From: a virus
Taxonomy: Duplodnaviria; Caudoviricetes
Virus record (IMG/VR): IMGVR_UViG_2563366756_000009
Coordinates: 1-64,000 of that record
Length of the DNA stretch: 64,000 nucleotides
Reading direction: 5' to 3' (one strand)
Below, piece by piece: positions 40,915 through 49,438 of the stretch. The position numbers and the translations under genes were made by a program. How positions within the stretch are numbered: position 1 is the first letter of the stretch; every line of letters begins with the position of its first letter. A model generated the notes under the pieces. The model ran no database searches, was not told the DNA's origin, and was given only the letters and a program-made list of their open reading frames with translations.

Positions 40915-42585
40915 TCATGCTGCTGCAATCTCACGTTGCTCGCGTGCGCTGAAGGCTGCCATTTCCGGCACGTTTGCGCGCACCAGCGCTGCAGCCATCG
41001 GTGGGCTGACGCTGTTGCCACACATGCGAACCTGCGCATGCTTTGCGAGGCGCTTGCCGTTGAACACCGGCGCGATGACGTAGCTCGCGGGAAAGCCCTG
41101 CGCCGCGTATAGCTCATGCGGCTCGAGCATGCGCATGCCGATGTCGGCGATCTGGTACGTCTGGCCGGCGACCGTGACGAGGCCCATGCGATCGGTGCAC
41201 GGGATCGTGTGCATCGGGTCACGGCAGTCCTGATCCTGGCCGCCTTCGCTGTAGTACTTCACCAGGAAGGCGCGAACCTCGCCGGTGTGGTTGCCCTGTG
41301 CCGAGATCGTAGGCGCGGGCTCCGCGGTAGCGCTTCCCGTGCATTCGCCGCGGAGCTTGACCATGTGCGACGACACCAGCGCATGATGGTCGGCCGTCGT
41401 GATCGTGCTGGCCGGCTCTTTCAGTCCGACGCCGGACCCGTCGTAATTCCCGCCGTAGTGCTTCGCGAGAAAGGCCGCTGCGAGAGCGAAGTGCCCACCC
41501 TTGACCTCGGCGCATTGGGTGCGCAGCGGCTCGTCTGCCGACCAAGAGCGTTGCGTCGAAGCATTCGCGCACTCAGTCAGCACCGGCGCGACAAGGCCAA
41601 ACCCGTGTTTGCCGGTCAGCGTCTGAATTGGTTCGCCGAGCGGCTGACCCCGGAAGTATTCGTACCCGTGGTTCACCTTCACGATGAACGGATCGGCCGA
41701 GTTGATGACGTACCGGCGCATGCCCCGCGCGATTCGGCGCTGCGTTGTCTCAGCCAATTCCTTCTTGCGCTCGAAGATGGACGGGCAGGGGATCGACCAG
41801 TCGATGCACTCGGCGGCTGTGCGCCACGGTTTGCGTTGGCCTGCGATCACGGCGGCACTGCCCGGCGCGCCGTGAGTCGGCTCGGGCCACACGATCGGCT
41901 TTCCGTCGCAACGTGCGATCAGGAACAGGCGTTTGCGGATCGTTGGCGCGCCATAGTCGCAGGCGCGTAGTTCGCGCCATTCCACAGTGTATCCGAGGCC
42001 ATTCAACAGGCGGTCGGCGTGATCCTTCCCGGGCTCGATGTTCAGGAACTCGCACGCTTCCGAAAACGCCGGGTGGAGTGCGGAAATTCCGTCGGAAAGC
42101 ATCGCGACGAACCCCTTGAACGTTTCACCCTTTCGGGCCGGGTCCGGTCGGTACTCCCCGGAGTCAATCTCGATCAGCGGTCCCCAGGTCACGAATTCCT
42201 CGACGTTTTCGACCGGAACGACTCGCGGGCGTACCAACAGCATCCAACGCAGGATGATCCACGCAAGCCCACGAATTTCCTTCTTTACCGGCGCGCCACC
42301 CTTGGCCTTGCTGAAGTGCTTGCAGTCCGGTGAGAACCAAGCGAGGCCCACAGGACGACCCTGTGTCAGCGCGAGCGGGTCTACGTCCCACACCGATTCG
42401 CAGTGGTGCTCGGTCTGCGGGTGGTTCATCGCGTGCATTGCGACGGCCTCGGGATCGTGGTTGATTGCGTGATCGACGTGGCGCCCGAGAGCCAGCTCGA
42501 TACCGCAGCTCGCGCCGCCGCCGCCGGCGAAGTTATCGATGATCAACTCGTCGGAAATGTCGAGAAGGAACTGATCTCTGATCAT
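40915..42585 (-). CDS. C5 DNA cytosine methyltransferase (orphan)
   Basis: DNFAGGGG motif I, SPDC motif IV, ENV motif VI, RKRLF, GNSV motif X; true start ATG 42585. Confidence 0.93.
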   Translation of the reverse strand: MIRDQFLLDISDELIIDNFAGGGGASCGIELALGRHVDHAINHDPEAVAMHAMNHPQTEHHCESVWDVDPLALTQGRPVGLAWFSPDCKHFSKAKGGAPVKKEIRGLAWIILRWMLLVRPRVVPVENVEEFVTWGPLIEIDSGEYRPDPARKGETFKGFVAMLSDGISALHPAFSEACEFLNIEPGKDHADRLLNGLGYTVEWRELRACDYGAPTIRKRLFLIARCDGKPIVWPEPTHGAPGSAAVIAGQRKPWRTAAECIDWSIPCPSIFERKKELAETTQRRIARGMRRYVINSADPFIVKVNHGYEYFRGQPLGEPIQTLTGKHGFGLVAPVLTECANASTQRSWSADEPLRTQCAEVKGGHFALAAAFLAKHYGGNYDGSGVGLKEPASTITTADHHALVSSHMVKLRGECTGSATAEPAPTISAQGNHTGEVRAFLVKYYSEGGQDQDCRDPMHTIPCTDRMGLVTVAGQTYQIADIGMRMLEPHELYAAQGFPASYVIAPVFNGKRLAKHAQVRMCGNSVSPPMAAALVRANVPEMAAFSAREQREIAAA

Positions 42586-42597
42586 GCTAGGATTCCT
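42583..42597 (+). repeat. Junction motif L (CATGCTAGGATTCCT)
   Basis: Also at 43519, 44543, 48121 (variant), 48668 and degenerate at 43225. Confidence 0.9.
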
Positions 42598-42618
42598 GAA
42601 AAAAAACGGGGGTAACGC

Positions 42619-43194
42619 ATGTGGCGATACGCAGCCAGCTTGATTGGCGGAATGGTGGGTGGATACTTTGTGGCGAAGTTCTGGCAGTACCCGCCGAGCA
42701 GTAGTCAGGATGCTGCCGCGTGGGTGCAGGCTGTGGGATCGATCATGGCCATTGCCGGAGCCGTCTGGATCTTTCGGGCTCAACGGCGCGGCGACAGACG
42801 TGACAAATGGGATGGGATGCTCGCGATCGTCACCGTGGTCAAAGCCGACATCCAAAGCATCTATGCGTTCTGCGATACGACGAATGCTTCGCGATTTGAT
42901 CCCGACCTCTATTTCGACGAAATATATCGCCCAGAGAATTTTGCACACGTTGACGATTTGCTCTCAGCCATACCTGTTCACGAAATTCCGTATGCGTGGG
43001 CCGCTTGGAATTTGATCGCCCTTCGGAGAGAACTTCGCCGCCTGGCTGATCTTCTCGCCGGGATGAACCAATCGCACTTGCGTCTTGGGAAGGAGGGTGT
43101 GATCGACGAGTGTGTGATAGCGATGGAGCACGCGCGAGCGATCAAGAACCTTGCCGACGGGGTTAGAGATAGGCAATCGGTACACCATATGTAG
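42619..43194 (+). CDS. Cassette cargo: 2-TM membrane-anchored helical protein
   Basis: 191 aa, two N-terminal hydrophobic helices; stop TAG begins junction motif R. Confidence 0.8.
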   Translation: MWRYAASLIGGMVGGYFVAKFWQYPPSSSQDAAAWVQAVGSIMAIAGAVWIFRAQRRGDRRDKWDGMLAIVTVVKADIQSIYAFCDTTNASRFDPDLYFDEIYRPENFAHVDDLLSAIPVHEIPYAWAAWNLIALRRELRRLADLLAGMNQSHLRLGKEGVIDECVIAMEHARAIKNLADGVRDRQSVHHM

Positions 43195-43239
43195 CGTCAC
43201 GCCCCCTTAGCGCCGTCGACGCGTCATACTAGACGTCCT
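43191..43239 (+). repeat. Full junction site 1 (R+L, about 42-bp imperfect hairpin)
   Basis: GTAGCGTCACGC-18 nt-GCGTCATACTAG then ACGTCCT. Confidence 0.85.
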
Positions 43240-43259
43240 CGAAAGTTAAGGAGATCGGT

Positions 43260-43490
43260 ATGTATGCAGTTGACTATGAAGGGTATGCAATCAGTGTTTT
43301 GATTGAGCGAGCGAAGCAATCCGAGCACCCCAACGGATTTGCCGTTTCCATCGTCATTAAGGCGGACGGCGAAGTTGTAGACCGGCAGCGGCGCACTGTG
43401 GAATTCGAGACCCCGAAGGAGTCTGCTGTGGCGCTTGATTGGGGACTAAAGCTGGCCCGCCGTCGTATCGATACGGGGAGCTGGGACTAG
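43260..43490 (+). CDS. Cassette cargo: 76-aa hypothetical protein
   Basis: AAGGAG RBS; stop inside the CTAG of the next site. Confidence 0.8.
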   Translation: MYAVDYEGYAISVLIERAKQSEHPNGFAVSIVIKADGEVVDRQRRTVEFETPKESAVALDWGLKLARRRIDTGSWD

Positions 43491-48123: not shown

Positions 48124-48160
48124 GCTAGGATTGCCCTCCTAAACAAAAAGGAGAAATCGC

Positions 48161-48547
48161 TTGGATAAGTGGTCAAGAAGAATCGGGGGATTGACCGTTG
48201 CACTGACATGCCTTTCGGGACATGCGGCAGATTGGGCAGGCTGGGTTCGTGTGCCGTTTCCGCCATCGAAGGACGGGCCAGAAGCGTCCATCTGGTGTCA
48301 GAGGCCTAAGCCGTATTACCCTGCCGAATGGGCTGATGCGGGAGAGGTAGGGGTGGTAAAAATTCGCGTGGTCGTTGCCCCGTCCGAGCGCGTGGTCTCA
48401 GCATCGGTTGTGCAATCGTCTGGATTCGTGCGTTTGGACGACGCTGCTCTTGCTGCAGCGAAAGCTGTCCGATGCCGGGCCGTTACTGGCGATATTCCGT
48501 CCCCTGGATTTTCCGCCATCATGCCTATTTCGTTCGAGGCACATTAG
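48161..48547 (+). CDS. Cassette cargo: stand-alone TonB C-terminal domain protein with signal-like N-terminus
   Basis: PYYP...GVVKIRVVV...VVQSSGFVRLDDAALAAAK; AAAGGAG RBS before TTG. Confidence 0.8.
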   Translation: MDKWSRRIGGLTVALTCLSGHAADWAGWVRVPFPPSKDGPEASIWCQRPKPYYPAEWADAGEVGVVKIRVVVAPSERVVSASVVQSSGFVRLDDAALAAAKAVRCRAVTGDIPSPGFSAIMPISFEAH

Positions 48548-48670
48548 AGGGCTCAAACGAGCACCCCCCAGCGTCTGCCGTCCACGCCGGCGGTATACGT
48601 CGTTCTTCGCTGCGAAGAGTTCTAGCGCTTTCACCACTGACGCGCTAAGGGTGACGGTAACTTTGCTCAT
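48398..48670 (-). CDS. Probable truncated phage gene (3' part runs antisense into the TonB cargo)
   Basis: Starts at motif L ATG; only about 40 aa lie outside the cargo gene. Confidence 0.35.
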   Translation of the reverse strand: MSKVTVTLSASVVKALELFAAKNDVYRRRGRQTLGGARLSPLMCLERNRHDGGKSRGRNIASNGPASDSFRCSKSSVVQTHESRRLHNRC

Positions 48671-48701
48671 GCTAGGATTCCTGAAAATTTCGGGGATGGC
48701 G

Positions 48702-49304
48702 ATGGACAAGGAACAAAATGGAGATCAGGTGAGCATCAGCCTGAATCGGACCATCAACACATATGCGGAGCTATGGCATGGAGCAAAATCGTTGGCGGCG
48801 AAAGGTCGTGCCGACGTCGATGGCTCGTTTTGGACGCTCATGGGGGCTCAGATTCTCTTTGCGTTCAGCATCGAGGCGTACTGCAACTACGCTCTTCCGT
48901 ATGTGTTTTCTAACCTAACGGAGAACCGCCGGCGGGATGTTGCCCAGCGCCCTCCTGTGTGCAGGATTGCACTGATCTGCGCGTCGCTGGACGTATCGTT
49001 CAATGAAGGTGGCGACGAGTTGAACGCGCTCCAAGAACTATTCAGATTGAGAAACTCATTGGCGCATGGACGACAGCTGGATCTCGCCGAAAGCAAGATG
49101 TACGCGGCGGAGGACGTCAACGATCCAGCGAATTTTTGGCTTTCCGCACCTTGGGAGGCGATGTGTACAGTGGACGCTGTAGACAGGACTCAGGATGTCG
49201 CTTATCGGATCATCACGGGAATTCACGGAAGATTGCCAACACATCTCGGGCGTCCGTTTAAATTCGGCGTCGGTTCTGGATTGGCTCAACTGGTGCGGTC
49301 GTAG
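48702..49304 (+). CDS. Cassette cargo: HEPN-motif protein (putative RNase)
   Basis: N-terminal FSIEAYCN helix and RNSLAH (R-x4-H) motif. Confidence 0.7.
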   Translation: MDKEQNGDQVSISLNRTINTYAELWHGAKSLAAKGRADVDGSFWTLMGAQILFAFSIEAYCNYALPYVFSNLTENRRRDVAQRPPVCRIALICASLDVSFNEGGDELNALQELFRLRNSLAHGRQLDLAESKMYAAEDVNDPANFWLSAPWEAMCTVDAVDRTQDVAYRIITGIHGRLPTHLGRPFKFGVGSGLAQLVRS

Positions 49305-49438
49305 TTACAAATCTGCGGGTCGTTCAAGTACTCCCGCCAATGCACCCATCGCGTTGGCGTGTGAAACCCCCAGTTGCGCTGCCACGGCCCCAGGATGAAA
49401 GGGGGGGCGCGTAGACAGATCGACCAGCACGATGGCGG

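Follow-up and report, generated by a model that had tools for sequence, protein, structure and literature searches.

Integron cassettes have one conserved site per single-gene cassette, stack in tandem, and vary in cargo. In T4-like phages, exchange between short shared regulatory motifs, the promoter-early stem-loop (PeSL) cassettes, shuffles open reading frames (ORFs) (Arbiol et al. 2010, PMC2839356; Comeau et al. 2014, PMC4122927). In the Cluster K mycobacteriophages, Pope et al. (2011, PMC3203893) described the motifs SAS and ESAS, the function of which is unknown, and in Burkholderia, the survey of morons by Ronning et al. (2010, PMC2920897) described hotspots but no boundary motif. Here, we analyse a stretch of 64,000 nucleotides (the window), which corresponds to positions 1 to 64,000 of IMGVR_UViG_2563366756_000009, an 87.9 kb IMG/VR provirus record with Pandoraea as host genus. 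In this window, a run of minus-strand prophage genes spanning 39.3–52.4 kb is broken up by six plus-strand ORFs associated with a short motif, L. We think it probable that these ORFs are moron-like cassettes equipped with a two-way adapter and shuffled by recombination at short shared modules, namely, L and two further motifs, R and J2. In the literature searched, no relevant paper contains the motif strings, in line with the view of the initial annotation of this DNA that the system had not been described. Conserved boundary modules that mediate modular shuffling are of an already known kind.

The six ORFs start at 42619, 43260, 43554, 44578, 48161, and 48702, interrupt the minus-strand operon, and end in TAG in all six cases, just as the initial annotation had stated. 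It had also placed L in front of every one of them. Five of these copies stand, three of which are exact matches to the 15-mer CATGCTAGGATTCCT (at 42583, 44543, and 48668) and two of which have two mismatches (at 43519 and 48121); the sixth, before the ORF at 43260, is badly degenerate (TCATACTAGACGTCCT). At up to three mismatches, the window contains five matches to L versus 0.83 expected. The reverse complement of L, AGGAATCCTAGCATG, contains a Shine–Dalgarno (SD) sequence that is separated by 8 nt from an ATG; this ATG starts the backbone gene after each insert. In the first copy (42583–42597, plus strand, like the others), the minus strand reads as the SD AGGA, 8 nt and ATG, and the plus strand contains TGCTAGGAT. 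The other exact copies occupy 44543–44557 and 48668–48682; a variant (CATGCTAGGATTGCC) at 48121–48135 lies at the start of the backbone gene 47797–48123; and the copy at 43519–43533 has lost the minus-strand start codon (GGTGCTAGGATTCCT).

On the plus strand, TGCTAGGAT matches the extended −10 pattern TGnTAnnnT, with an A-rich stretch 7–9 nt further downstream, and we infer from this resemblance that it may act as an extended −10 promoter for the cargo. At four or five tandem joints without a minus-strand gene, the CA of CAT is altered, and TGCTAGGAT, the leader, and the cargo ATG at +35/36 are intact. The persistence of L where the minus-strand start has been lost indicates that, from TG onward, L belongs to the cargo.

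L is not confined to the window. Exact copies are present in 27 of 401 Burkholderiaceae genomes, where the reversed control gives none, and in about 85 IMG/VR contigs, of which some 10 are likely to be chance matches according to a control search with a 15-mer. At all 30 of the genome hits, the CAT heads a minus-strand ORF (shorter than 40 codons in six cases), and an SD and an ORF of 67–229 aa follow 26–54 nt downstream. The pooled loci comprise 107 non-redundant L-linked ORFs, which form 80 clusters and lie beside 41 left-gene clusters. The distance between L and the cargo ATG is usually 35 or 38 nt, and 47 of the 80 clusters fall into a single frame class (p = 3e-6). T precedes CAT in 86% of the copies, and more than 100 copies share a near-invariant core, although this apparent invariance is inflated by the fact that most copies were found by an exact-core search. 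In 99% of the copies, L has a C at position 0; on this count, we rejected a flipping of the cargo between ATGCTAG and CTAGCAT repeats, the co-oriented form of which would read TGATGCTAGGATTCCT.

Two further occurrences may be mentioned here. A second array, at 8314–12139 of locus L189 (Pandoraea G004, contig 10), has six copies of L in 4 kb, with TonB-like and other plus-strand ORFs interleaved with minus-strand genes. In the Ralstonia phage YO103_6 (ON170177.1; locus L247, 3313–3360), a diverged L without TCCT (CATGGTAGGATCGAAAC) is followed by an SD and a plus-strand ORF, and the L element may, judging from this similarity, reach Ralstonia phages in an altered form.

The joints between cassettes and backbone are sharp. 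When loci with the same left gene are compared, the nucleotide identity continues through L and breaks at +15 to +20. When loci with the same cargo are compared, as is possible with the 209-aa cargo D (44578–45207, plus strand, two predicted membrane helices), the identity extends from TCATG to TAG(C). The neighbours of cargo D are an ASCH-like gene, three kinds of methylase, and one other gene; conversely, the start of the C-5 methylase gene bears at least five different cargoes across prophages. Different cargoes between conserved sites, which the initial annotation had predicted, are thus found, as is the same cargo in different contexts. No duplication was seen at the joints compared. The integrases and recombination genes vary among the L-bearing prophages, and no recombinase travels with L. 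Nor is L intrinsic to the ASCH-like gene, since almost none of 80 IMG/VR loci with ASCH-like relatives has L (these loci are too distant for synteny).

This arrangement resembles that of the PeSLs, in which a short conserved regulatory motif flanks small, variable, mostly orphan ORFs in hyperplastic regions, and in which the copies are crossover points for the insertion, deletion, and replacement of ORFs between related phages. Here too, the motif flanks variable ORFs, and the similarity between relatives breaks at the motif. However, a PeSL combines a terminator stem-loop with a strong sigma-70 promoter and serves same-strand genes in lytic myoviruses, whereas L lies at a divergent junction in temperate Burkholderiaceae phages and doubles as the ribosome-binding site and start of the neighbouring gene; moreover, no terminator was found here, and the right end is not a fixed motif. 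The promoter and terminator activities of PeSLs, and their mini-circles, have been shown experimentally, whereas the features described here are read from the sequence.

The cassettes are optional. In locus L194, a homologue of the exonuclease (90% amino acid identity) joins the homologue of the gene at 47797–48123 by an ATGA overlap, where the window has a gap of 1,315 nt. The HNH gene lies next to the 209-aa cargo in the window, next to a 105-aa cargo in L190, and next to none in L192/L011, where this gene, R tail included, overlaps its same-strand neighbour. A methylase of a Ralstonia phage has an ordinary SD without L. The expectation that sites without cargo exist was therefore correct, but not the form that the initial annotation had given them, that of a palindrome, ATGCTAGCAT, left behind by the removal of a cassette: the matches of ATGCTAGCAT(C) in IMG/VR are random-looking, and none is a junction, while TCATGCTAGCRTCAC has 20 IMG/VR matches, none of which has the junction layout or runs into R. 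The real empty sites are ordinary ATGA overlaps.

This presence or absence between conserved genes is a property of morons, which are optional genes between adjacent phage genes, with a lower GC content, often encoding membrane or host-interaction proteins, and occurring at hotspots where the genes vary. The GC content of the pooled cargo is 56.3% versus 62.4% for the neighbouring backbone gene, the cargo being lower in 65 of 71 pairs (p = 7e-12); in the window, the figures are 54–58% for the cargo and 62–64% for the backbone genes. Membrane proteins are predicted in 25 of the 80 cargo clusters versus 3 of 40 backbone clusters. The difference is that classical morons have their own promoter and terminator and no common boundary sequence (the definition of Hendrix, quoted in PMC2920897), whereas here, at least 80 different morons share one adapter at their head.

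The second module, R, is found at 43192, 43791, and 45205 with 0–2 mismatches versus none expected, with a degenerate copy at 43488–43520. Its reverse complement, ...CGC GTC GAC GGC GCT AAG GGG GCG TGA, encodes RVDGAKGA and the stop codon of the backbone gene that precedes the insert. Thus, the copy at 43791–43822 (plus strand) combines the TAG of cargo C with the tail, RVDGAKGA*, of the ASCH-like gene (43796–44545), and that at 45205–45236 (plus strand, two mismatches) combines the TAG of cargo D with the tail, RVDGAKGE, of the HNH gene (45210–45620). The copy at 43192–43223 is an orphan that is fused to the degenerate L (43192–43239 in all, plus strand), and we read it as the tail remnant of a lost minus-strand gene. 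The 19-nt core of R is present in eight IMG/VR contigs and four Pandoraea species records; at up to three mismatches, R occurs in 10 of 38 Pandoraea genomes, mostly as one copy each. In other proviruses, R forms the ends of HNH, ASCH-like, and DPPH-methylase genes. Since at least three unrelated gene families have R at their ends, R is a module of the DNA rather than a protein motif, and here the initial annotation, which had counted the same four copies and had drawn the same conclusion from the tail common to the ASCH-like and HNH genes, was right. Natively, proteins of the ASCH-like family end in ...EFKRV plus a tail that varies, and R (about 35 nt) is probably derived from the tail of an ASCH-like gene. 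As L is the start of the next gene and R is the end of the preceding one, L and R are two faces of antisense insertion into a tight operon.

A third conserved joint, J2 (GCAGCGGAGGAGCGGAAATCGTGA; 45617–45640, minus strand), connects same-strand neighbours and comprises the tail and stop of the upstream gene together with an SD and GTG as the start codon. In other loci (L004, L005, L006, L009, L013, L036, L060, L070, L178–L180, L184, and L189), the exact 24-mer lies in front of at least nine unrelated gene families, including HNH, ASCH-like, and two methylase genes. J2 also doubles as the right-hand context of some cargo genes. With R ending at least three gene families and J2 heading at least nine, the use of shared boundary modules appears to be a general habit of these phages. 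The recurrence of L, R, and J2 in many genomes beside different genes contradicts another explanation, in which the repeats would be local historical duplications within one prophage with no wider meaning; the two R–L joints of the window, leaders included, have 74% similarity over 43 nt and may be paralogues, but we consider this explanation highly improbable.

Could the modules have a mainly regulatory role? A phage or host factor might bind DNA or RNA at gene starts via L and J2, which would then be comparable to the SAS or to stoperators; the binding would keep their sequence constant, with the shuffling as a by-product of the many identical copies. This would account for a conservation that goes beyond the needs of an SD or a −10 element and for the presence of two exact modules at unrelated starts (41 families for L, nine or more for J2). 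There is, moreover, a precedent in the 13-bp SAS, which lies 3–7 bp before the starts of genes of different families (PMC3203893). Like the SAS, J2, and L on the minus strand, are exact SD-core motifs a few bases before unrelated starts in the non-structural part of the genome only. The likeness is one of layout: L heads 41 left-gene clusters, and its sequence is unrelated to GGGATAGGAGCCC. The hosts are different, and L, unlike the SAS, includes the start codon, occurs only where an antisense ORF starts opposite, and survives the loss of the minus-strand start. L is, indeed, confined to divergent junctions with an antisense ORF rather than being found at backbone starts in general, and the L-bearing loci examined have no candidate binding protein in common. 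A mainly regulatory role, which would in any case be compatible with shuffled moron-like cassettes rather than exclusive of them, therefore seems to us rather unlikely.

The initial annotation had proposed a different mechanism, an integron-like capture of genes at a hairpin site bounded by CTAG. In such a mechanism, a dedicated site-specific recombinase or a nuclease acting at CATGCTAGGAT or at the CTAG core would move L–cargo units, in the manner of an integron or of restriction and ligation. The near-invariant core of L and the start-codon joints, which are exact to one base, are what such an enzyme might be expected to produce. So too is the enrichment in TAG stops, which are found in 36 of the 80 cargo clusters versus 18.5% of the long ORFs in related loci (p = 5e-8). 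The commonest right-end geometry is TAG-NN-TCA (18 of the 107 cassettes), a CTAGCAT end that mirrors L is present in a subset, and the cassettes of the R type, and these only, have a 7–9 bp inverted match (TCATGCTAG ... CTAGCATCA) at both ends. Against these regularities, the right ends as a whole are heterogeneous, with 95 contexts among the 107 cassettes and with spacers of variable length; the predicted empty site has not materialised; and the tyrosine integrase of the window (39298–40455, minus strand), which had been named among the candidate catalysts, is of the generic phage type (Pfam Phage_integrase, E = 9e-19) and scores 29 bits on the integron-integrase model TIGR02249, the cut-off of which is 265. 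Elsewhere, too, no recombinase accompanies L.

The hairpin itself fares no better as a common site. Hairpins had been claimed between tandem cargo genes in the window, and one of them is strong: the R–L joint at 43487–43527 is a perfect 11-bp inverted repeat (CTAGCACCACG / CGTGGTGCTAG) around a loop of 18–19 nt (11 perfect pairs, −29.9 kcal/mol, z = −3.35), which keeps its pairing through a double change from T-A to C-G with respect to the consensus. The other, at 43192–43240, is weak: of its 11 positions, eight form Watson–Crick pairs and one a G-U pair, and folding at minimum energy yields another structure. R by itself has no structure in folding. The two fusions join R to L at the identical base, as a dedicated enzyme might do, but 23 tandem joints in other loci have no shared hairpin. 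A covariance model of R–L run over the 38 Pandoraea genomes, from which compensatory changes in the arms had been expected, gave one further R–L joint; this joint, in L250, is the orthologue of the 43192 joint with its cargo B and has a pair-breaking change, such that it does not fold. A second high-scoring match, in L249, is an R gene tail without an L behind it.

In place of a hairpin, the tandem joints contain remnants of backbone genes, such as the R tails in the window. The joints in L008, L179, L182, and L207 hold a 15-codon methylase head; in the window, 48596–48670 (minus strand) is a head remnant that matches codons 1–25 of a gene with a length of 203 aa in L015; and in L261, a tandem joint has a decayed R tail. 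Hence, the stacking of cassettes looks like the imprecise loss of a backbone gene between two inserts, which argues against a precise enzymatic capture. (The 90-aa ORF at 48398–48670, minus strand, is not a gene: beyond the 25 codons, it is non-homologous and antisense to the TonB_C cargo region.) The likeness to integrons is therefore limited to one conserved site per single-gene cassette, tandem stacking, and varying cargo. There is no IntI, attI, Pc promoter, or conserved attC-type imperfect hairpin here; every cassette appears to have an expression signal of its own; and the cassettes are interleaved with phage genes that look essential. In short, the shuffling of genes at the joints survives from the initial proposal, the integron-type mechanism does not, and we consider a dedicated gene-capture enzyme improbable.

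Two other mechanisms were rejected. For a restriction and ligation at GCTAGC, only two of the six cassettes of the window have CTAGC as their end, and empty sites were not detected. For a transposon or a miniature inverted-repeat transposable element, the inverted match is present in the R-type subset only, no duplication was seen at the joints, and searches of the region with Pfam and PHROG revealed no transposase.

How, then, might moron-like cassettes with a two-way adapter be shuffled? The six cassettes, which run antisense to the early operon near the integrase gene of a temperate Pandoraea phage, would each be headed by an adapter consisting of L and a leader of about 20 nt. On the minus strand, L would supply the next backbone gene with a ribosome-binding site (AGGA, 8 nt, and ATG); without the adapter, an insert would sever this gene from the site that it uses in the tight ATGA overlap. 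On the plus strand, the promoter-like TGCTAGGAT would lead into an A-rich start region and then an SD, with the ATG of the cargo about 35 or 38 nt away from L. R would be carried onto unrelated genes as a boundary module, and J2 would serve same-strand neighbours in the same way. L with its leader, R, J2, and the ends of backbone genes would then be crossover points between co-resident Burkholderiaceae phages, at which the RecA of the host or the RecE-like system of the phage would recombine the modules and so swap cargo and backbone genes as units; for PeSLs, such crossover has been demonstrated in experiments (PMC2839356, PMC4122927). Imprecise deletions would stack cassettes in tandem, leaving behind the heads and tails of backbone genes, and the right ends, too, would come from imprecise events. 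A candidate helper for such short-homology exchange is the RecE-like (YqaJ) recombination exonuclease of the backbone (49439–51040, minus strand; Pfam YqaJ, phrog_7655).

Several observations weigh against this scheme. An invariant core of 15–16 nt is short for a RecA-type exchange, and its conservation extends to positions not required for an SD or for a −10 element. Homologous exchange only reshuffles existing joints and leaves unexplained the single-base precision of some 40 start-codon abutments; likewise unexplained are the T before CAT in 86% of the copies, the enrichment in TAG, and the CTAGCAT ends mirroring L. A simple promoter scan that requires a −35 element does not call L, and no terminator was found after the cargo genes, so that the classical promoter–gene–terminator definition of a moron applies only in part. 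Finally, the product of 51033–52097 (minus strand; a phrog_3657 protein), at the position where an annealase would be expected, belongs to no recognised family. The near-invariance of the core, the precision at start codons, the T before CAT, and the TAG and CTAGCAT bias together keep alive the idea of a targeted mechanism. In one form of it, the invariant TCATGCTAGGAT core, perhaps with J2, would be the recognition site of a host or phage activity that joins ORFs precisely to start codons; we would give this idea a small chance of being correct. If true, it would mean that a targeted gene-capture system builds antisense accessory arrays in the prophages of Burkholderiaceae, and it would explain the TAG/CTAG bias.

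As regards the cargo of the window, all of it on the plus strand, PADLOC gives no match to a defence family for any of the six. Cargo A (42619–43194; 191 aa, GC content 56%) is a predicted membrane protein with a weak match to phrog_33632. Cargo B (43260–43490; 76 aa), the homologue of which is in L250, has a below-threshold match to the CV_2116 domain, and cargo C (43554–43793; 79 aa) has homologues in two other contexts (L068 and L082). The family of cargo D is found in Pandoraea only, with seven proteins in 5.8 billion. Cargo E (48161–48547; 128 aa) is a stand-alone TonB C-terminal domain (Pfam TonB_C, E = 1.4e-11; TIGR01352), and a homologue that is 54% identical lies behind the same L variant (GATTGCC) in the Pandoraea locus L189. 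Cargo F (48702–49304; 200 aa) has no family match; it contains R-N-S-L-A-H, an R-x4-H motif of the type seen in HEPN nucleases.

The backbone, on the minus strand, includes a C-5 cytosine DNA methylase (40915–42585; Pfam DNA_methylase, phrog_116), the ATG of which is the CAT of the first L copy, the ASCH-like gene (phrog_874), and the HNH endonuclease gene (Pfam HNH, phrog_2118). Six small genes with overlapping stops and starts then occupy 45617–48123. In the 134-nt gap between cargo F and the exonuclease gene (49305–49438), a minus-strand ORF of 41 aa has a tail (..TACTCCCGCCA) that is also present on the right-hand side of cargo genes in five or more other loci, with variable spacing after the cargo stop; this ORF is a small conserved gene or else one more remnant of a tail. 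Positions 38453–38700, some 600 nt away from the integrase gene, hold three tRNA genes (Arg-TCT, Met/Ile-CAT, and Leu-TAA) with spacings of 1 nt. The label of early-left operon is based on the adjoining integrase gene and the presence of the RecE-like gene; a Pfam search of 52.8–57.6 kb for the immunity region gave no match. Rfam gave no credible match over 42000–50000, and a megablast of 40900–51100 against 50,697 phage records produced only partial methylase matches and no close relative.

A long-standing question is how phages gain and swap small accessory genes, whether by illegitimate recombination and selection or by means of conserved linkers. Susskind and Botstein reportedly proposed an exchange at conserved linkers, and the region described here is a clear natural case of a linker in temperate phages: via a single adapter, 80 or more ORF families are linked to 40 or more backbone genes, with breakpoints that are exact to one base, and R and J2 play the same part at the other types of junction. 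The unexplained precision and TAG bias leave room for a real mechanism. The region provides a compact two-way expression adapter that is open to bench tests, and a tractable system for the measurement of short-homology cassette exchange. The motif also marks accessory genes, possibly genes for defence or exclusion, in the prophages of the Burkholderiaceae, in which Pandoraea and related genera include opportunistic pathogens.

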